This document shows, piece by piece, positions 20,171-62,442 of a DNA stretch of 64,000 nucleotides. A model generated the notes under the pieces. It saw only the letters and a program-made list of their open reading frames with translations, was not told where the DNA came from and did not search any database. The position numbers and the translations under genes were made by a program. Location: NCBI GenBank assembly GCA_934168305.1, contig CAKPNF010000002.1:98789-162788 (forward strand). The letters run 5' to 3'. The stretch is from an uncultured Clostridia bacterium. Lineage in GTDB: Bacteria; Bacillota; Clostridia; TANB77; CAG-508. Each line of letters begins with the position of its first letter. Positions within the stretch are counted from its first letter, which is position 1.

Positions 20171-21406
20171 ATGAAAAAAATAGAACTATTAGCACCAGCA
20201 GGATCATTTGAAAAAGCAAAAACAGCATTTAAATATGGAGCAGACGCAGTATATTGTGGAACATCATCATTATCACTAAGAACAAGAGCAGATATGGATA
20301 ATGACGACTTAATAAAAACAATAGAATATGCACACAGCATAGGAAAAAGAGTACATGTAACACTAAACATATTTGCATGGGACGATAAATATGAAGAAAT
20401 AATAGAAATGGCAAAAATATTAAATGAAGTAAAACCAGACGCAATAATAGCAGCAGACGGAGGAGTAATAGAAACATTAAAACAATATGCACCAAATGTA
20501 CCGATACATGTAAGTACACAAGCAAACATAGTAAGTGTACATGATGCAAACTTCTGGTATAAAAACGGAGCCGAAAGAGTAATAATGGCAAGAGAAATAA
20601 ACAAAGAACAATTAAAATACATAATGGAAAACAAACCAAAAGACTTAGAAGTAGAAATGTTCGGACATGGTTCAATATGTTTTGCGTTTTCAGGAAGATG
20701 TTTTTTGAGTGATTTTATGTGCGGAAGAAGTGCAAATTTAGGAGATTGTGCACAAAGTTGTAGATGGTCGTACAATTTATATGCAGAAGAGAAAAACAAT
20801 CCTGGACAATTATATCCAATAGAAGAAAGCAAATATGGAACAAGTATATTCTCATCAAAAGATTTATGCTTGATAAAAGAGATACCAGAAATAATAGATA
20901 TGGGTATAGATAGCTTAAAAATAGAAGGAAGACTAAAAACAGAGTATTACATAGCAAGCGTGATAAATGTTTATAGAAATGCAATTGACGATTATATGAA
21001 AGACCCAGAAAATTATGATTATACAAAGTATATGAAAGAAATTGAAAAGGTAAAAACAAGAGAATTCACAACATTTTATTTTAATGATAGAAAAAATAAA
21101 GATATCCAAGATTTAAGTGGAAGACAATATAATGACAAATATGAATTTGGTGGAAAAATATTAAAATACGAAGAAGAAAAATCAACAATAGAAATAAAAA
21201 ATAAATTGATGCTAGGAGATACAATTGAAATAATAATTCCAAACAAGCTAGAACCAGAAATATTCAAGATAGAAAAATTATGGGATTATGAAACAGGAGA
21301 AAAAATCGATAGTGTAAGTCCTGGTGTAAAAGGACAAAAAGTATTTATGAAATTGCCAATCAAATGTGAAGAAGGATGGATATTAAGAAGAAAGAAGAGG
21401 GATTAA
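20171..21406 (+). CDS. Peptidase U32 family protein
   Basis: The N-terminus is ELLAPAGSFEKAKTAFKYGADAVYCG and the core is E.GHGS.C, the U32 collagenase-like signature. The last codons (KRD-stop) lie inside a repeat unit. Confidence 0.85.
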   Translation: MKKIELLAPAGSFEKAKTAFKYGADAVYCGTSSLSLRTRADMDNDDLIKTIEYAHSIGKRVHVTLNIFAWDDKYEEIIEMAKILNEVKPDAIIAADGGVIETLKQYAPNVPIHVSTQANIVSVHDANFWYKNGAERVIMAREINKEQLKYIMENKPKDLEVEMFGHGSICFAFSGRCFLSDFMCGRSANLGDCAQSCRWSYNLYAEEKNNPGQLYPIEESKYGTSIFSSKDLCLIKEIPEIIDMGIDSLKIEGRLKTEYYIASVINVYRNAIDDYMKDPENYDYTKYMKEIEKVKTREFTTFYFNDRKNKDIQDLSGRQYNDKYEFGGKILKYEEEKSTIEIKNKLMLGDTIEIIIPNKLEPEIFKIEKLWDYETGEKIDSVSPGVKGQKVFMKLPIKCEEGWILRRKKRD

Positions 21407-21537
21407 GGGGCCACCACACAAAATCCCTCTTTCTTGAACCAAAGTTGACGTTTTGAACCATTGGTTCAAAACTTTGGTTTATTTAAATATTCTAAAAATT
21501 TTAAAAGAGGGATTTTGTGTGGTGGCCCCTTAATCCC
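21399..21537. repeat. Family-1 palindromic repeat: two inverted 29 bp units GGGATTAAGGGGCCACCACACAAAATCCC enclosing nested family-3-like palindromes
   Basis: The units are at 21399-21427 and 21509-21537 (inverted). The inner inverted repeats are AACCAAAGTT/AACTTTGGTT and TTTTGAACCA/TGGTTCAAAA. Both convergent genes terminate (KRD-TAA) within the units. Confidence 0.8.
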
Positions 21538-22090
21538 TCTTTTCTTCATTATTGTCTTCTAATAATATATCAAGTATTTTAGGATATATTTTAGAAGCGT
21601 TTTTATTCCAATTATCCACAATTTTTTTTGCTCTTTCACGAGAACCTGCAAAAGTTTTTACTTCAAATATCGTTTCATTTTTTTCAATAACCCTACATTT
21701 AATAATATAATCATCTTCACTTTTAGGAATAAATTCAGCTACAATAGAAGTTTCATTAGCTATAGTAGTAAATTCTTTCTTAAAAACATTGTCAGCCTTT
21801 AATTTTAATATTCCTGGCAATACATCAATTGTAAGAGAAAGTGCATTTTTTCCTTCGCTTGTTATTTTTAGTACAGATTCTTCTTCTTCATCTTTAGTGA
21901 ATATGCCAACTAATTTGGAATCTAATAAATCAGTCAAAACTTCTTTAAAATAAAAGTAATTAACATTATTTATAGAAGAGATAATTTTATATAATCCACC
22001 TTCCAATATACCATTTGGAATTTTATCTAAGATATATAAAATTAAAACTTTATTTTCAGCCAAAGTAGTTGTATTATCTGAACTAGACAT
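21530..22090 (-). CDS. Hypothetical protein (186 aa), convergent with the U32 gene
   Basis: It is an ORF with an RBS. The C-terminal codons KRD-stop are encoded by the repeat unit. No confident family was recognised. Confidence 0.55.
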   Translation of the reverse strand: MSSSDNTTTLAENKVLILYILDKIPNGILEGGLYKIISSINNVNYFYFKEVLTDLLDSKLVGIFTKDEEEESVLKITSEGKNALSLTIDVLPGILKLKADNVFKKEFTTIANETSIVAEFIPKSEDDYIIKCRVIEKNETIFEVKTFAGSRERAKKIVDNWNKNASKIYPKILDILLEDNNEEKRD

Positions 22091-23310: not shown

Positions 23311-23364
23311 TCGACAAAAAACAACAAAAATATGAGACAAAAACGGACCGTCCCAAATGTCTCA
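23311..23364. repeat. Family-2 repeat, single arm (TCGACA...TGAGACA-N-GGACCGTCCC-N-TGTCTCA)
   Basis: It shares the TGAGACA / GGGACAGTCC-type / TGTCTCA arrangement with the elements at 38445-38563 and 44207-44282. It lies 12 bp upstream of the 23376 ORF. Confidence 0.6.
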
Positions 23365-23375
23365 CAGGAGAGAAA

Positions 23376-24753
23376 ATGAAAAGTAAAATAACTAATATTA
23401 TATTTTGGATAATTACTTTGATAGCAATAGTTTTAACATTTAATTTTTATAAAAAGAATAATTTTAATGATTTTATAAGAAGTGAAATGAATATGCATAC
23501 ATCAAAATTCCAGAGAGATTCAGAAGTAAAATATTCAAAAAATGATAGCTATAGAATAGTTTCAAGTGAAGAAAATGATGCAACATTTTATAAAACAGTA
23601 AAAGTGCAAAAAAACATGCCATATAAAGTGACATGTATGGTAAAAACAGAAAATGTTGTTGCAGAAAACGATATATCAGGAGTAGGTGCACAAATATCAA
23701 TAGTTGGAACAGCGGAAAAATCAATAGCTATAACAGGAACTCAAGATTGGCAAAAGATAGAAATGATATTTAACTCAAAAGATAGAGAAGAGGTAGATAT
23801 TGGTTTTAGGTTAGGAGGATATTTAGGAAAATGTACAGGAACAGCTTGGTTTTCAGATTTTACATTTGAAGAAGGAACAACTAGCGAAAATAATGATTGG
23901 AATTTTGCATGTTTTATATTTGAAAATACAGATGTGGTTATAGACGGGAAAGAAGTAAAGATATCTATGACTAATAATGATATATTAGATATAAAAGATA
24001 CAATAAAGAGATTTGAAACAAATATAAAAAATTTATCTCAAAACAAAATGACTGCAAATTGCGATGTATATAATATACAAAAGCCAATAAATAAATTAAC
24101 ATATGATGAAGAATTTGGATATTTTGTAGCAGCAGAAGATGTTGAAAGTAGCATAAAAAGCGTAATTGAGTTAAATAATTATGACCATATTTTTGTTATC
24201 ATAAGATTAGGAAATGAACAGTATAAAGATGATATTAAGATAAATGATTGGATAGGGCTTCGGTTCTATGGATTATTATGGAATAGGTTACTCAAATATA
24301 AGATTACCAAACTCATCTAAAAGTTACATATATAGATATGATACAAGAATAAATATATTTCCTGAAGAAGTGTTTTTACATGAATTTCTACATTCATTGG
24401 AAAGAACTTCAGAAGAATACGGGTATGATATACCGGCTTTACATGATTATGAAAAATATGGATATAAAAATCAAAAATTGACAGGTTTAAAAGATTGGTA
24501 CAAAGACTATATGAATAAAAATGTAAAAACTTCAAATGGTTATATAGGATTACCAGAACAAGTATACACTTTAAAACCTGCAAAAAATTCGGACTTTAAA
24601 TATTCTTATAAGATTGAAGAATTTCACGAACCACAAAACTTGTTAGAAGATATTAAACAGTTGTTTAAAAATGTTGTTAACAATGTTAAAAATATAAAAA
24701 AGACATTTGATAATAAGACAATTCAAAATTTAGAAGTTAATAGTACAAATTAG
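23376..24753 (+). pseudogene. Membrane-anchored putative HExxH zinc-metalloprotein, split by a +1 frameshift near 24255-24270 (two ORFs 23376-24320 and 24268-24753)
   Basis: Two adjacent ORFs in different frames overlap by 53 bp. The second carries VFLHEFLHSLE (HExxH). The N-terminal ORF has a TM helix plus a beta-rich domain. This could be a genuine frameshift or a sequencing error. Confidence 0.5.
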
Positions 24754-25798: not shown

Positions 25799-25827
25799 GG
25801 GATTTTGTGTGGTGGCCCATTGATCCC
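25799..25827. repeat. Family-1 repeat, solo 29 bp unit (GGGATTTTGTGTGGTGGCCCATTGATCCC)
   Basis: It matches the unit found at 21509, 29752 and 47348. It starts 3 bp after the queA stop. Confidence 0.75.
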
Positions 25828-29699: not shown

Positions 29700-29701
29700 A
29701 T

Positions 29702-29789
29702 GAGTTAAGTGGGAGTAAGGGGCCACCACACAAAATCCCTGTGAACCAATGGGGATTTTGTGTGGTGGCCCCTTACTCCCACTTAACTC
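29702..29789. repeat. Family-1 palindromic repeat: perfect 38 bp arms around a 12 bp centre
   Basis: The left arm is GAGTTAAGTGGGAGTAAGGGGCCACCACACAAAATCCC and the centre is TGTGAACCAATG, followed by the reverse-complement arm. It starts 2 bp after the spoIIP stop and is followed by a T-rich stretch. Confidence 0.85.
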
Positions 29790-29835
29790 ATTCAGGTGCT
29801 TGCACTTTAATTTTTCAAAATTTTTATAGAAAGTG

Positions 29836-29890
29836 TTGACAAAAAAATTCATAAGCATATAATATAATTACATATGAATAATTATTCATA
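29836..29890 (+). promoter_or_regulatory. Promoter (TTGACA...TATAAT) with an 18 bp perfect palindrome TATGAATAATTATTCATA, a putative ArsR/SmtB-family operator
   Basis: TTGACA is at 29836-29841 and TATAAT at about 29858-29863. The palindrome at 29873-29890 lies just upstream of arsR-cadA. Confidence 0.5.
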
Positions 29891-29916: not shown

Positions 29917-30270
29917 ATGGAAGAAAATTTTACAGAATGCAACATATTGCATGAAGGAACAGTAAAAAAAGTAAAACAAAAAATGCCAGAAGACGGCTTT
30001 ATATATGATTTAGCAGAACTATTTAAAGTATTTGCAGATTCAACAAGAATGAAAATAATATATGCTTTATTAGAAGAAGAATTGTGTGTATGTGACATTG
30101 CAAATATTGTAGGAACAACGCAATCAGCAATATCACATCAATTAAGATTATTAAAACAATCAAAATTAGTAAAATTTAGAAGAGAAGGAAAAATAATATT
30201 TTACAGTTTAGACGATGAGCACATCGAACAAATTGTAAAGAAAGGAAGTGAACATATTGAAGAGTTATAA
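29917..30270 (+). CDS. ArsR/SmtB family metalloregulator
   Basis: The HTH region LAELFKVFADSTRMKIIYALLEEELCVCDIANIVGTTQSAISHQLRLL carries a CVC metal site. Confidence 0.8.
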   Translation: MEENFTECNILHEGTVKKVKQKMPEDGFIYDLAELFKVFADSTRMKIIYALLEEELCVCDIANIVGTTQSAISHQLRLLKQSKLVKFRREGKIIFYSLDDEHIEQIVKKGSEHIEEL

Positions 30271-35000: not shown

Positions 35001-35076
35001 GCTTGCATAGCTCAGTTGGTAGAGTACTGCTTTGGTAAAGCAGAGGTCACGGGTTCAATTCCCGTTGTAAGCCCCA
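35001..35076 (+). tRNA. tRNA-Thr (anticodon GGT)
   Basis: The cloverleaf has acceptor GCTTGCA/TGTAAGC, D-stem AGCTC, anticodon stem CTGCT/AGCAG with loop TTGGTAA (anticodon GGT), T-arm ACGGG-TTCAATT-CCCGT and an encoded CCA. Confidence 0.9.
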
Positions 35077-38447: not shown

Positions 38448-38563
38448 GACATTTGGGACAGTCATAAGATGTCTCATAAAAAATGAAGAAAAATGTCGAA
38501 TAAAATAATATAACAAAATTCGACAAAATTTATGAGACAAAATAGGACTGTCCCCAGTGTCTC
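38445..38563. repeat. Family-2 palindromic element (~120 bp, two inverted ~55 bp arms)
   Basis: The left arm is TGAGACATTTGGGACAGTCATAAGATGTCTCATAAAAAATGAAGAAAAATGTCGAAT. The right arm is its imperfect reverse complement (…TTCGACAAAATTTATGAGACAAAATAGGACTGTCCCCAGTGTCTCA). It overlaps the thrS stop codon and ends 15 bp before ychF. Confidence 0.75.
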
Positions 38564-38578
38564 AAAAAGGAGGAAAAA

Positions 38579-40226: not shown

Positions 40227-42314
<2,088 letters not shown>

Positions 42315-42324
42315 AAATCAGTAG

Positions 42325-42396
42325 GGACGTTGTTTAACTGGTTGAAAAATAAAAAAATAAATTCAGTAACTATTCAACTAGTTAAACAACGTCCCC
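42325..42396 (+). terminator. Long palindrome (23-24 bp arms GGGACGTTGTTTAACTGGTTGAA / TTCAACTAGTTAAACAACGTCCCC) followed by a T-run, after ligA
   Basis: It is a near-perfect inverted repeat with a 25 nt AT-rich loop, followed by ATTGGTTTTT. It shares GACGTT / CCATTGG cores with the family-3 elements. Confidence 0.6.
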
Positions 42397-42426
42397 ATTG
42401 GTTTTTAAATTGCGAAAGGAGAAAAG

Positions 42427-45439: not shown

Positions 45440-45532
45440 GTTTTTACTAAATTGAATTAATAAGATTAAGAGGCATTTATTCCAAAAATAGGTATTACTA
45501 TATAGTAAATATTTAAGGAGGGAGGAGTGCGT

Positions 45533-45934
45533 ATGGAAGAGAAGATATTAAAAGAACTTAAGGCTATTAATGTAAAACTTCAAGAAACAGAAGAAAAAAT
45601 AACTGCAACAATGAGAAAAGAAATACAAGAAACAGAAGAAAAAATAACTGAAACAATGAGAAAAGAAATACAAGAAACAGAAGAAAAAATAACTACAACA
45701 ATGAGAGAAGAAATACAAGAAGCAAAAGAAAAAATAACTGCAACATTGAGAAAAGAAATGAATCAAAGAATAGGACAATCTACAACAGAAATATCAAATG
45801 AAATTAAAGATTTGTGCGAGGTTATTGAGAAAAAAGAAAATAAAAATAAAGATGACATGAAAAAAGATCTAAGACAACATGAAAACAAAGTTTTAAAAGG
45901 AGTAGAGGCATTAAAAAAAGTTTTAGCTAGCTAA
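45533..45934 (+). CDS. Small coiled-coil protein with four tandem 15-aa repeats (QETEEKITxTMRKEI)
   Basis: A strong RBS AAGGAGGGAGGAG is present. The 45 bp DNA tandem repeats at 45584-45763 encode the repeated peptide. A terminator hairpin lies at about 45998-46030. Confidence 0.6.
   Translation: MEEKILKELKAINVKLQETEEKITATMRKEIQETEEKITETMRKEIQETEEKITTTMREEIQEAKEKITATLRKEMNQRIGQSTTEISNEIKDLCEVIEKKENKNKDDMKKDLRQHENKVLKGVEALKKVLAS
45584..45763 (+). repeat. Coding tandem repeat, 45 bp x 4
   Basis: CAAGAAACAGAAGAAAAAATAACTGCAACAATGAGAAAAGAAATA and variants are repeated directly. Confidence 0.8.
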
Positions 45935-47303: not shown

Positions 47304-47376
47304 GGGATTAAGGGGCCACCACACAAAATCCCTCCAAAAAATTAGCCGGGATTTTATGTGGTGGCCCATTAATCCC
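47304..47376. repeat. Family-1 palindromic repeat (inverted pair of 29 bp units, second copy slightly diverged) between pgk and tpiA
   Basis: GGGATTAAGGGGCCACCACACAAAATCCC is at 47304-47332 and GGGATTTTATGTGGTGGCCCATTAATCCC at 47348-47376. It begins 5 bp after the pgk stop. Confidence 0.8.
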
Positions 47377-52380: not shown

Positions 52381-52575
52381 AATCTTTGAACCATCGGTGA
52401 CGTTCTTAAATTGGTTGAAATTAATGGATTAATTATAATTAAATATAATAAATCTCACTTAATTTCAACCAATTTAAGAACGTCATCGATGGTTCAACTG
52501 TTTCGCAACCAATCTAAGAACATTCCCAATAGTTCAAAAAGAGAGGGATTGAAAGTCCTGGCCCCTCAATCCCTA
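52381..52575. repeat. Family-3 palindromic repeat cluster (GTGACGTTCTTAA / TTAAGAACGTCA arms and a GGGATTGA...TCAATCCC hairpin)
   Basis: A ~40 bp inverted repeat GAACCATCGGTGACGTTCTTAAATTGGTTGAAATT ... AATTTCAACCAATTTAAGAACGTCATCGATGGTTCAA is present. A degenerate third copy is CAACCAATCTAAGAACATTC. The terminal hairpin is GGGATTGAAAGTCCTGGCCCCTCAATCCC. It lies between convergent genes. Confidence 0.7.
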
Positions 52576-52579
52576 TTTT

Positions 52580-53482
52580 TTATTTCTTTTCATCTTTTAT
52601 AACTTCTTTAATGGCACCTAAACTTGAAAGTGCACTAGTTGCTTCAAAAGGAATAAATACTTTGTTGGCTTCACCATCAGCAACTTTTTCTAAAGCTTCT
52701 AAAGATTTTAATTGAACTAATTTATCATCTGGATTTGCATTTTTAATAGCTTCATAAACCATTTGAATTTCTTTAGCTTTAGCTTCAGCAACTTCTTTAA
52801 TAGCTTGTGCTTCACCGGCAGCTCTAGTTATTTTTGCCTCTCTATCAGCTTCTGCTTCTAAAATAGCAGCTTGTTTTTTACCTTCAGCAATTGTTATAGC
52901 AGATTGTCTTTGAGCTTCAGATTCAAGAATTAAAGCTCTTTTATTTCTTTCTGCATTCATTTCCTTTTCCATTGCATCTCTGATATCAGCAGGTGGTGTA
53001 ATATCTTTAATTTCAACTCTATCAACTTTACATCCCCATCTATCAGTAGCTTCATCTAAAACAATTCTTAATTGATTATTGATTCCATCTCTTGAACTAA
53101 ATGTTTCGTCTAGAGACATTTTACCAATTATATCACGAATTGTTGTAATGGCTAAATATTCAATACCTTTCTTTAAACTTTGAATTTCATAAACTGCTTT
53201 TGCAGGATCTGTTATTTGATAGAAAACAACAGTGTCTATTGTTATTGTAACATTATCTTTTGTAATAACTCCTTGAGGTGGAACATCCATTGTTTGTTGT
53301 TTTAAACTTACAACACTTCTAACACGATCAAAGAATGGAATTATAATTGTAAGACCAGCGTCTGCAACTTTATAAAATTTACCTAATCTTTCAATTACAT
53401 ATACCTCAGCTTGTTTAACGATTTTAATTGATTTAAATGCTATAATTAATATTATAACTAATAAAACTAATAAAAACCACAT
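52580..53482 (-). CDS. SPFH/band-7 (stomatin-like) protein
   Basis: An N-terminal TM helix is followed by an SPFH domain (IVKQAEVYVIERLGKF...) and a C-terminal coiled-coil (EAQRQSAITIAEGKKQAAILEAEA). Confidence 0.85.
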   Translation of the reverse strand: MWFLLVLLVIILIIAFKSIKIVKQAEVYVIERLGKFYKVADAGLTIIIPFFDRVRSVVSLKQQTMDVPPQGVITKDNVTITIDTVVFYQITDPAKAVYEIQSLKKGIEYLAITTIRDIIGKMSLDETFSSRDGINNQLRIVLDEATDRWGCKVDRVEIKDITPPADIRDAMEKEMNAERNKRALILESEAQRQSAITIAEGKKQAAILEAEADREAKITRAAGEAQAIKEVAEAKAKEIQMVYEAIKNANPDDKLVQLKSLEALEKVADGEANKVFIPFEATSALSSLGAIKEVIKDEKK

Positions 53483-60457: not shown

Positions 60458-61171
60458 ATGTTTAAAAAATTAAAAAGTAAAAAAATATTAACAATAATAT
60501 TAACTGTTATTATTATTGGATTAACATTAATATCAACAATATGCATTTATAAAAAATATAAAGAACAAAATGCTACATTAGAAACATTATCAAAATATGG
60601 ATCAAGAGGAACAGAAGTAACACAGATACAAACTAAATTAAAGAGATGGGGATATTATACAGGAAATATTGATGGAATATATGGAACACAAACAGTGAAT
60701 GCGGTAAAATATTTTCAAAGAAAAAACGGATTAACAGCAGATGGAATAGCAGGGCCAGCAACATTAAAAGCGATGGGAATAATGACATCTTCTTCATCAT
60801 CTAGCAGTTCTTCAAGTTATAATAGTAACCTAAATTTATTATCAAGAGTAATCTACGGAGAATCAAGAGGAGAACCATATACTGGACAAGTTGCAGTTGG
60901 AGCTGTTGTAATGAATAGAGTAAAAAGTAGCTCTTTCCCAAATACAATATCAGGAGTAGTATATCAATCAGGTGCATTTGATGCAGTAAAAGATGGTCAA
61001 ATAAATTTAACACCTGATTCAACAGCAAAAAAAGCAGCACAAGATGCATTAAATGGATGGGACCCTAGTTATGGAGCTATATATTATTTTAATCCTTCAA
61101 CAGCAACAAATAAATGGATTTGGTCTAGACCGATGACAGTTACAATTGGTAAACATAGATTTTGCAAATAG
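60458..61171 (+). CDS. sleB: Spore cortex-lytic enzyme SleB-like (PG-binding domain plus hydrolase_2 domain)
   Basis: The PG_binding_1 domain reads GSRGTEVTQIQTKLKRWGYYTGNIDGIYGTQTVNAVKYFQRKNGLTADGIAGPATL. A poly-Ser linker follows. The hydrolase domain reads LLSRVIYGESRGEPYTGQVAVGAVVMNRV. Confidence 0.8.
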   Translation: MFKKLKSKKILTIILTVIIIGLTLISTICIYKKYKEQNATLETLSKYGSRGTEVTQIQTKLKRWGYYTGNIDGIYGTQTVNAVKYFQRKNGLTADGIAGPATLKAMGIMTSSSSSSSSSSYNSNLNLLSRVIYGESRGEPYTGQVAVGAVVMNRVKSSSFPNTISGVVYQSGAFDAVKDGQINLTPDSTAKKAAQDALNGWDPSYGAIYYFNPSTATNKWIWSRPMTVTIGKHRFCK

Positions 61172-61217
61172 TTAAAACTAAAAACTTTAGAATTTTATAA
61201 TTCTAGAGTTTTTATTA

Positions 61218-61688
61218 GTTACAATTCACAGCCTCAGAAAATTTTTGTGTATAAGTTGCCGTCTTAAGGGTTGTATATATTGGATATTGTATCCGTTTGA
61301 TTGAAGTAAAAAATAGAAAATCTTAAATAAAAAACTGAGAAATGCTCACGGGAAAAATGTATATATGTATATGATTTGAAACATTTTCTCGGTTCAATAC
61401 ACAACATAAGAATTTCTAAAATAAATTTATGGCACCCTTCCACTTAGTCCTCGCTTCGCTCGACGTGAACTCTTTCCATAAATTTATTTGAGAAATTCTA
61501 ATATTGCTCCAATCACATTCGAAAAGTTTAAAATCGTATACATATATACATTTTAAGCCTGAGAGAGGCTCCGTTTTTTATTTTAGATTTTCTTTTTGAA
61601 CGTAATGAACAGGATACAATATCCAATATATACAACCCTTAAGACGGCAACTTATACACAAAAATTTTCTGAGGCTGTGAATTGTAAC
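61218..61688. repeat. 470 bp nested-palindrome element (77 bp near-perfect terminal inverted repeats, palindromic interior, no ORF); MITE-like or structured RNA
   Basis: Positions 61218-61294 match the reverse complement of 61611-61688 at about 76/77. Inner inverted repeats are AAAATGTATATATGTATATGATTT/AAAATCGTATACATATATACATTTT and AGAATTTCTAAAATAAATTTATGG/CCATAAATTTATTTGAGAAATTCT. A terminator-like hairpin AGCCTGAGAGAGGCTCCGTTTTTTA lies at about 61558-61585. Confidence 0.7.
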
Positions 61689-61782
61689 TTTTATTATATA
61701 TAAAAATTAAAAATTCATAAAAAATGGTTGATATTTTTAATAAATTAATATAAAATCTAAAAAGGAAAAAAGGAGGAAACGA

Positions 61783-62442
61783 ATGATAACTTTAAAAGAC
61801 GTTAAGGAAAATCCAGAAGTGGATGCACTAATAAGAGGTGCACAGAAACAGCTAAATGCACTAGGTTATACGGAACACGGACACAGACATATATCAATAG
61901 TATCAAAAAGAGCAGGAGATATACTAGAAAAATTAGGATATCCAGAAAGAACAGTTGAATTAACAAGAATAGCTGGATACATGCATGACATAGGAAACTG
62001 TGTAAACAGAGTAGATCACGCACATAGTGGAGCAATACTAGCATATAACATTTTAAAAGACATGGGAATGCCAGTTGAAGAAAGAACAGAAATAATGATG
62101 GCAATAGGAAATCATGATGAAAATACAGGAAATGCAATAAGTGATATATCGGCAGCTATAATATTAGCAGATAAATCAGATGTGCATAGAGATAGAGTTG
62201 TAAATAAAAATTTGTCAACATTTGATATACATGATAGAGTAAATTATGCAGTAACGAATGCAAATTTGGACTTAGATGAAAAAGAAAGAAAAATAATTCT
62301 AGATTTAACAATTGACACAAAAATATGTCCAGTATTAGATTATTTTGAAATATTTATGGACAGAACAATGATGAGCAAATATGCTGCTAAATTTTTAAAA
62401 ATATGGTTTGAATTAATAATAAATGATACAAAACTACTATAG
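61783..62442 (+). CDS. HD-domain phosphohydrolase
   Basis: GHRHISIVSKRAG...YMHDIGN supplies the H...HD metal-binding motif. Confidence 0.75.
   Translation: MITLKDVKENPEVDALIRGAQKQLNALGYTEHGHRHISIVSKRAGDILEKLGYPERTVELTRIAGYMHDIGNCVNRVDHAHSGAILAYNILKDMGMPVEERTEIMMAIGNHDENTGNAISDISAAIILADKSDVHRDRVVNKNLSTFDIHDRVNYAVTNANLDLDEKERKIILDLTIDTKICPVLDYFEIFMDRTMMSKYAAKFLKIWFELIINDTKLL

Follow-up and report, generated by a model that had tools for sequence, protein, structure and literature searches.

Why should one short palindromic sequence recur at the ends of several genes, and at one place supply the last codons and the stop codon of two convergent genes at once? The question is raised by a 64,000-nt stretch of an uncultured Clostridia bacterium (GTDB lineage Bacteria; Bacillota; Clostridia; TANB77; CAG-508; GenBank assembly GCA_934168305.1, contig CAKPNF010000002.1, positions 98,789 to 162,788), hereafter the window. 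In it a 29-bp unit, here called family 1, occurs at the facing ends of a U32-family peptidase gene and a DUF4364 gene (the focal site) and after further genes. Very probably, family 1 is a repetitive extragenic palindromic (REP) family whose head-outward doublets are REP doublets forming hairpins (REPINs), non-autonomous elements copied by a fixed, single-copy REP-associated tyrosine transposase (RAYT) encoded elsewhere in the genomes of the lineage. Coordinates without a prefix are those of the window, and L numbers denote fetched or sampled stretches of related genomes or metagenome contigs.

Family 1 units in the window

The 29-mer GGGATTAAGGGGCCACCACACAAAATCCC matches the window seven times with 0–2 mismatches, at 21399(+), 21509(−), 25799(−), 29711(+), 29752(−), 47304(+) and 47348(−), the seven positions given in an earlier note made from the sequence alone; dinucleotide-preserving shuffles of the window gave no match. 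An nhmmer profile recovered the identical seven units and one partial match, a cousin unit at 52545–52573(−). Six of the seven units form three inverted pairs, with the head of each unit (GGGATTAA, the end that faces the stop codon) turned outward; their spacers of 81, 12 and 15 nt agree with the gaps of 12–82 bp described before, and 25799(−) stands single. The arms of two pairs are 100% complementary, over 38 nt at the focal site (21395–21432 and 21504–21541) and over 40 nt behind spoIIP (29700–29739 and 29752–29791). Folded as RNA, the focal, spoIIP and pgk/tpi pairs reach −91, −85 and −46 kcal/mol (z = −15.6, −14.7 and −8.3, respectively). The window has 27% GC, as part of a 73% AT genome. 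A known RNA family was ruled out, as a scan of the window at the Rfam gathering threshold matched only a tRNA (35001–35073) and nothing at the repeat sites, and a CRISPR array was ruled out by the dispersed, inverted arrangement. The genes adjoining the units are U32-family (TrhP-like), queA/tgt, spoIIP-family, pgk/tpi and DUF4364:

20171–21406 (+), U32-family peptidase/TrhP-like gene; RRKK C-terminus lengthened by RD
21394–21548 (no strand), REPIN-type element in the convergent U32/DUF4364 gap; 155 bp without counterpart in empty-site alleles
21399–21427 (+), left REP unit (arm 21395–21432); AGG GAT TAA forms the final two codons and stop of U32
21436–21480 (no strand), inner palindrome of the spacer, resembling 'family 2' repeats; contains a terminator-like hairpin at 21450–21472
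21509–21537 (−), right REP unit (arm 21504–21541); source of the last DUF4364 codons (..AAG AGG GAT) and TAA
21530–22090 (−), DUF4364 (PF14277) gene for a 186-aa protein; ..LLEDNN C-terminus lengthened by EEKRD
25799–25827 (−), single REP unit in the queA/tgt gap; right half of a full REPIN seen at the same site in L128
29700–29791 (no strand), REPIN directly 3' of the spoIIP stop; perfect 40-nt arms, units 29711–29739 (+) and 29752–29780 (−)
47304–47376 (no strand), REPIN occupying the pgk/tpi gap; units 47304–47332 (+) and 47348–47376 (−), an imperfect pair
52545–52573 (−), cousin REP unit GGGATTGAGGGGCCAGGACTTTCAATCCC with a different loop; head 6 nt from the stop of an HflK-like gene, 52580–53482 (−)

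Each of these loci had been said to begin within 5 bp of a stop codon. This holds for U32 and DUF4364, whose stops (TAA 21404–21406 and TAA 21532–21530) both lie inside units, and for queA and pgk, whose stops precede the unit by 3 and 5 nt; the spoIIP stop is 11 nt from the 29-mer and comes within the range only when measured to the 40-nt arm, which it directly adjoins (0 nt). The cousin unit follows the same head-to-stop rule. At the single unit 25799 it is the tail, not the head, that faces the queA stop, and this unit can be derived by a deletion between the GGGATT ends common to both units of the L128 doublet.

A RAYT gene enclosed by the units in relatives

In a Hadza genome (CAKPDN, L018), units at 1671(+) and 2580(−) enclose an open reading frame of 251 aa that matches Pfam Y1_Tnp at 41.5 bits (cut-off 23) and, among NCBIfam models, REP_Tyr_transpos (REP-associated tyrosine transposase) at 66 bits (E = 3e-18), with 18 bits for the IS200 model. 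The protein has 178 homologues below E = 1e-10, nearly all of about 251 aa, one of which is named RayT by its source. In 34 aligned homologues the HUH histidines H60 and H62 never vary, nor do Y120 and N124. The profile built from the alignment has a sole match in the PDB, E. coli TnpA_REP (4er8, E = 1.7e-6), and none to an IS200/IS608 transposase. N124 aligns with E. coli N119, the Asn that sets TnpA_REP apart from TnpA_IS200 (PMC6006769). All 34 proteins match Y1_Tnp, a few of them show weak helix-turn-helix (HTH) matches in the extra C-terminal ~110 residues, and similarity to the group 2 E. coli protein is distant only.

The neighbourhood of the gene is conserved in L018 and five further contexts, over a range of 55–100% protein identity, and consists of PSP1, a 56-aa ferredoxin (Fer4), the RAYT and a convergent 2-oxoacid:ferredoxin oxidoreductase (POR) operon. 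Judged from this shared neighbourhood, rather than from copy counts per genome, the RAYT appears to be a single-copy gene inherited vertically at a fixed chromosomal site. In every context (L018, L154–L158 and L159) it is enclosed by REP(+)...REP(−) with the heads outward. RAYTs at 73–100% identity are flanked by the TCC loop variant of family 1, and at 55% identity (L159) both flanks have switched jointly to a cousin, GGGATTAAGGGGACAGTTCTCAAAATCCC. A RAYT between inverted units, with flanks that switch as the RAYT diverges, therefore marks a REP/REPIN–RAYT system, or 'REPtron', for which such flanking of the RAYT is the defining arrangement (PMC3116915 and PMC8266576). The family had been described as REP/BOX-like: because a unit-flanked RAYT is found in relatives, the REP label can be raised from resemblance to membership, and the BOX label falls away, as there is no homology to BOX.

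A second RAYT-like gene (L115:449–1030), 43% identical to the first, has a different palindromic repeat, ATGAGACA...GGGACAGG...TGTCTCAT, on both sides. Because that repeat flanks the gene on either side, the lineage probably carries at least two REP/RAYT pairs. Repeats of the L115 type (ATGAGACAAA..GGAC(C/T)GTCCC..TGTCTCA) also occur in the window, at 23326–23376 and 38526–38576, just upstream of ribosome-binding sites.

Empty alleles and rewritten C-termini

Two relatives, L160 and L161, carry empty sites at the position of the focal element. They share 96% and 95% identity with the window in the U32 protein and about 91% nucleotide identity in the flanking genes; homology breaks at 21393/21394 and resumes at 21548/21549–21550, leaving 35 and 59 bp in the relatives vs 155 bp in the window. 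Each empty-site allele holds a classic bidirectional intrinsic terminator, AAAAAAAATGTCATAAG..CTTATGACATTTTTT (with the U32 stop within the stem) or AAAAAAGGTTGTCAAA..TTTGACAACCTTTTTT. As these alignments show, the REPIN at the focal site occupies the place of a native bidirectional terminator and has rewritten both C-termini.

Among 120 close U32 homologues the majority have 409 aa and end ...WILRRKK, with 57 sharing one exact tail alongside many variants; the window protein has 411 aa and ends ...RRKKRD. The repeat had been credited with the Lys-Arg-Asp-stop of both convergent genes. For U32, because repeat-free orthologues end ...RRKK, the Lys codon is native and doubles as the base of the stem, so that only Arg-Asp-stop (AGG GAT TAA) derives from the element. 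For DUF4364 the claim stands: homologues mostly end ...LLED, ...LLEDD, ...LLEDEN or ...LLEDNN (179–181 aa), a tail of the ...EEKRD type as in the window is found in ~15 homologue clusters (185–186 aa), and compared with repeat-free orthologues ending ...LLEDxx, about Glu-Glu-Lys-Arg-Asp-stop is new. Repeat-free orthologues thus lack the RD tail in U32 and the EEKRD tail in DUF4364, the outcome on which the idea of repeat-derived C-termini had been made to depend. We also considered whether the ..RRKKMS tail of the closest U32 orthologue was the product of a REPIN variant extended by ATGAGTTAAGT; this was ruled out, its source being the native terminator stem of L160.

More distant relatives carry other elements at the focal site. 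L029 has a unit GGGATTTAGGGACGTTCCTTAAAATCCC, and its U32 protein ends ...RRQKGI via GGG ATT TAG; in L027 the reading frame of DUF4364 runs for about nine codons into a palindrome of 140 bp. Different members of the REP superfamily thus occupy the U32/DUF4364 site in different lineages. The spoIIP site varies too: the window has a doublet followed by an apparent native small terminator, and L146 and L150 have one TCC-variant unit right after the TAG and lack the small terminator. Presence/absence and single/pair polymorphism is seen at orthologous sites among close relatives. Because the focal and spoIIP sites vary in element and terminator content, elements turn over at terminator positions, repeatedly altering the last residues of neighbouring proteins.

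Distribution and sample

When a single genome from each GTDB species was scanned for the exact 21-mer core, 26 stretches turned up, confined to four metagenome-assembled genomes. These carry the annotation uncultured Clostridia or Clostridium and come from human (Hadza) or chicken gut; contigs of one of the four, CAYQBQ, are 85–97% identical to the window. A scan of metagenomes with a 17-base pattern, GGGATTNNGGGGCCACCAC, gave at least 120 stretches. Among the listed matches, those with 23–36% GC, mostly labelled human gut, contain full units, and about one-third were discarded as chance matches in high-GC DNA without a full unit. Viral contigs gave one chance match in 67% GC DNA and no full unit, and a full-text literature search for the core sequence returned unrelated primer matches only.

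The results below refer to a collected sample of 121 units in low-GC gut contigs, which flank clustering reduced to 61 distinct loci; these are counts in contigs and not in whole genomes. None of the 121 units lies inside a gene, except for overlap with last codons. Many units sit at contig ends and, in L049, the left flank of pgk continues, precisely at a REP unit, into the right flank of a locus unrelated to it (compare L023/L042 and window 47304). Both observations fit the repeats, because multi-copy repeats break short-read assemblies; the L049 join arose either as a chimera of the assembly or through recombination at the repeat.

Anatomy of units and doublets

All 33 doublets in the sampled contigs are of the (+ −) type, with the GGGATTAAGGGG head outward, and there are neither (− +) doublets nor neighbours in the same orientation; the spacers measure 12–203 nt and the doublets fold at −46 to −91 kcal/mol. 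Of 24 distinct doublets, 13 have two arms of the same sequence, vs 4.5 expected on random re-pairing (maximum of 10 in 5,000 shuffles), an excess to which lineage-specific subfamilies contribute a part. Because a private T5G variant is common to both arms of the 29711/29752 pair, the arms of a doublet do not evolve independently.

The stem of a unit is GGGATT/AATCCC, usually lengthened to 9–10 bp by AGA/TCT (range 6–10 bp), and encloses a conserved 17-nt loop. Units fold at −16 to −19 kcal/mol (z of about −3.5 to −4), with about −16 for a single with consensus flanks, and the TCC loop variant, ...CCACCACTCCAAATCCC, gains an additional GGGG/CUCC helix and folds better, at −19.4 kcal/mol. The bases just outside the 29-mer pair in 45 of 58 copies vs 31.5 ± 2.8 in shuffles, the outer pair alternating between A–T (35 copies) and C–G (7 copies) and AGA-unit-TCT being the commonest form; covariation of the flanks past position ±1 was not significant. 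Upstream of the head lies an A-tract (55–73% A at positions −9 to −3), and a run of at least four T follows the tail in 65% of single units vs 8% in the background. Many spacers start with tcttt and finish with aaaga, and each unit of such doublets therefore has A/T tracts of its own.

A spacer of 119–122 nt with an inner inverted repeat is common to three unrelated loci (L128:5269–5387, L007:5020–5141 and L094:969–1090); a full-length form of ~180 bp therefore exists, and shorter spacers are deletion derivatives of the long one. Target-site duplications are absent from 50 of 59 elements, the rest showing chance matches of 1–2 nt and, in one case, a 5-nt match.

Two further observations concern the spacers. 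The shared 120-nt spacer has a conserved non-palindromic core (aagaaaaagacctataggtagaccccagctatg) flanked by the inner inverted repeats; an invertible segment was considered for the core in L094 and ruled out, the whole symmetric element merely lying in the opposite orientation. A second palindromic family, TTGAACCA..G(T)GACGTT..TTAA..TGGTTGAA, occurs in the window at 42309–42410, 52386–52497 and 21436–21480. It is found alone after gene ends and also nested in the spacer of the focal REPIN; the REPIN spacers of L005 and L006 contain pieces like it, and GGGACGTT is present too in the cousin REPs of L027 and L029.

Position relative to stop codons

Taking as a gene end any stop that terminates an open frame of 90 codons or more, we found a stop within 15 nt of one element end in 45 of the 61 distinct elements and a stop inside the unit in 7. 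Of the head ends, 49/85 have a stop within 15 nt and 39/85 within 6 nt, and of the tail ends 6/37 have one within 15 nt (Fisher p = 2e-5); singles alone give 23/37 for heads vs 6/37 for tails (p = 1e-4). The check on positional bias that the earlier note had proposed thus yields, over 61 distinct loci, a strong and orientation-specific bias toward stop codons. The stop-to-head distance has its mode at 2–6 nt. No fixed insertion point was found relative to the stop or to the hairpin foot (extended stem), because the distances, which scatter from −14 to +13, fail to collapse to one value.

By gene context, 12 of the 61 elements lie between convergent genes, 25 between co-directional ones and not one between divergent ones, and in many co-directional cases the element fills the 20–30 nt from the stop to the next ribosome-binding site. 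At loci with ample space (37–348 nt free on the other side) the head is still 0–11 nt from the stop, which points to targeting or function and is also compatible with promoter avoidance. The stops that adjoin REP heads are TAA (44), TAG (5) and TGA (0), probably just the stop usage of a 27% GC genome. Units quite often supply the stop codon and 2–9 C-terminal residues. The suggestion that the element targets or creates gene 3' ends is therefore borne out as far as the strong stop bias and the repeat-derived tails go; targeting itself is inseparable here from selection against insertions elsewhere.

Other features of the window

A perfect sigma-70 consensus promoter (29836–29863; TTGACA, 16 nt, TATAAT) lies upstream of an ArsR-family gene at 29917, just downstream of the spoIIP REPIN and its small native-looking terminator (AGGTGCTTGCACTTTAATTTTT). 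A nested inverted repeat of ~530 bp (61190–61716), with 129-nt arms at 84% and inner arms of 76 nt and 31 nt, sits between the genes 60458–61171 and 61783–62442 and matches L001 in both orientations. A 45-nt tandem repeat (45531–45800) comprises five in-frame copies in an open reading frame (45527–45934), giving a 15-residue protein repeat.

Proposed mechanism and alternative explanations

We propose that the RAYT would move the units by way of single-stranded hairpin DNA, as E. coli TnpA_REP does with its REPs. By analogy with that enzyme (PMC8266576), it would recognise the folded single-stranded unit and cleave adjacent to it, so that copying would leave no target duplications; single units may be decayed or internally deleted REPINs. 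In mRNA the extended unit (A-tract, 9–10 bp stem, 17-nt loop and T-tract) could act as a bidirectional terminator, as a protective 3' hairpin or as both. We infer such a role because units replace native terminators in position and have A-tract and T-tract flanks; a terminator consensus scan flagged only the inner hairpin at 21450–21472. The long stems of doublets might in addition be substrates for double-strand-specific RNases. Copies would persist where a terminator is needed or tolerated, atop stop codons in a compact genome.

Several points weigh against this account. The 17-nt loop is unusual for an intrinsic terminator, and queA–tgt and pgk–tpi resemble junctions within operons, at which complete termination would do harm. 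At 66 bits the RAYT falls below the curated NCBIfam cut-off of 80 and is thus a divergent member; no RAYT was found in the 64-kb window, as expected for a single-copy gene, and its presence in the genome of the window is an extrapolation from relatives. Neither a GTAG nor a CGTC tag was found 5' of the palindrome, where an A-tract and then (G)A or C make up the flank. Proximity to stops could come largely from very short intergenic regions together with selection, and selection alone could be enough to explain position in the co-directional cases in which the element fills the gap.

Two alternatives do without a RAYT. The elements might be miniature inverted-repeat transposable elements (MITEs) of a DDE-type insertion sequence, moved by cut-and-paste and with the 29–38 bp arms as terminal inverted repeats. 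Their ends are indeed inverted and terminal, internally deleted derivatives occur, and internal sequence is common to different loci, such as the long spacer of L128, L007 and L094. But target-site duplications are missing from 50/59 elements, with only the 1–2 nt chance matches and the single 5-nt match among the rest; no DDE transposase was seen between units, the Y1/RAYT gene being the only transposase found there; and each arm is a hairpin by itself and is also found alone, which makes this origin highly improbable. Equally hard to credit is that the units do not move but are sites of the host under selection, for instance for DNA uptake or protein binding, and are linked to the RAYT by coincidence. 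The unit sequences are very uniform, and Neisseria offers a precedent in its inverted pairs of uptake sequences at gene ends; against this stand the presence/absence and single/pair polymorphism at orthologous sites in close relatives, the flanking of both sides of the RAYT in every orthologue with a switch of repeat as the RAYT diverges, and the restriction of the family to four GTDB species. Readings of the loop as a Chi site, a DNA uptake sequence, a mimic of tRNA 3' ends (GCCACCA) or a CsrA site were set aside in view of the RAYT link.

Two other explanations concern the proximity to stop codons. Insertion could be targeted by the transposase to terminator-like or stop-proximal A-rich sites, as opposed to random insertion followed by selection. 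The short head-to-stop distances at loci with ample space, the different REP families at the very same U32/DUF4364 site across lineages, the A-tract upstream of the head and the head bias of singles (23/37 vs 6/37) favour targeting. The variable stop-to-head distance (−9 to +13) and the lack of a conserved target motif beyond A-richness in a 73% AT genome do not, and promoter avoidance with in-situ turnover by gene conversion could yield the same picture; we regard targeting as possible but doubtful. Somewhat less likely still is a translational role, instead of or beside termination, in which the hairpin would stall terminating ribosomes and so lead to mRNA cleavage, trans-translation and less output from the upstream gene. 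The 49/85 head ends within 15 nt of a stop, with their mode at 2–6 nt, would suit such a role, as would REPINs in the probable operons queA–tgt and pgk–tpi, where a terminator is unexpected, and E. coli provides a precedent in REPs within 15 nt of a stop that are reported to affect translation (Liang et al. 2015, in the summary given by PMC12306157). However, the native terminators of empty-site alleles also overlap or abut stops, so proximity alone does not discriminate, and seven units hold the stop itself, unlike the reported E. coli geometry.

The REP/REPIN–RAYT reading can be carried further, and here we are tentative, holding the extension to be rather unlikely as a whole. In a gut lineage that is Gram-positive and genome-reduced, the RAYT behind a REPIN population might fall outside groups 2 and 3, which use GTAG, and evolution might have turned the extended unit into a portable cassette of stop codon and bidirectional terminator that is directed to terminator positions, replaces native terminators and rewrites C-termini.

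Comparison with known systems

Nearly all work on REPIN–RAYT systems has been done in Gammaproteobacteria and Neisseria, in which the GTAG tag plays a central part in transposase recognition. These elements are inherited vertically, and an active-looking REPIN population in Clostridia would extend the range over which they are known. Three features distinguish this population: its RAYT is divergent and has an additional C-terminal domain, the GTAG tag is missing, and probably two or more REP/RAYT pairs coexist. It offers a natural experiment on how RAYTs recognise hairpins. The repeats also explain the variable U32 and DUF4364 C-termini among near-identical strains, contig breaks and chimeric joins in gut metagenome assemblies, and the replacement of terminators in a very compact genome. 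RAYTs of group 1 are known from Clostridia, and only groups 2 and 3 have been reported to be flanked by highly abundant repeats (Bertels et al., PMC5581495) or associated with REPINs (Bertels & Rainey, bioRxiv 10.1101/2021.07.10.451892); a REPIN-forming RAYT outside these two groups, if true, would be of interest to specialists.

Family 1 has much in common with the REP/BIME (bacterial interspersed mosaic element) and REPIN–RAYT systems ('REPtrons') of E. coli, Pseudomonas, Stenotrophomonas and Neisseria: its extragenic units are short palindromes present many times, its inverted doublets form long hairpins, its singles resemble decayed doublets, it lacks target-site duplications, it avoids promoter-only regions, many copies lie within 15 nt of stops, and a single-copy, syntenic Y1/HUH RAYT is flanked by inverted units (PMC3116915, PMC8266576 and PMC12306157). 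It differs from them in having neither GTAG nor CGTC 5' of the palindrome, the tetranucleotide that defines group 2/3 REPs (PMC8266576), in its 6–10 bp stem and conserved 17-nt loop, in its Gram-positive, 27% GC Clostridia host, and in units that often supply the stop and 2–9 residues. The RAYT, at ~251 aa and with an extra C-terminal region of ~110 aa that has weak HTH matches, is only distantly related to E. coli TnpA_REP.

IS200/IS605 elements and their non-autonomous derivatives, palindrome-associated transposable elements (PATEs), share the Y1 HUH chemistry, the dependence on hairpins and the absence of target duplications. Unlike theirs, the protein here scores 66 bits against the RAYT model vs 18 against the IS200 model, and its catalytic Tyr is followed by an Asn of the RAYT type; its gene is syntenic and present in one copy, not in many, and the hairpins on its two sides are inverted instead of direct. 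Bacterial MITEs such as Correia/NEMIS, RUP and BOX are likewise scattered between genes as small repeats that fold into hairpins and can serve as terminators or processing sites, but family 1 does not resemble them in sequence, shows neither a TA nor any other duplication and has no DDE partner. BOX elements are modular and are not known to be linked to a RAYT.

With bidirectional Rho-independent terminators the extended unit has in common the A-tract, hairpin and T-tract and the very position held by terminators in relatives; a conserved 17-nt loop, an identical sequence in many copies and occurrence inside probable operons set it apart. Rickettsia palindromic elements (RPEs) are palindromic repeats that become coding sequence by in-frame insertion inside genes, whereas family 1 touches only the last 2–9 codons and the stop. 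Family 1 is thus a further example of a REP/REPIN–RAYT system, from an uncultured, AT-rich lineage of gut Clostridia and situated at gene ends in place of ordinary terminators.

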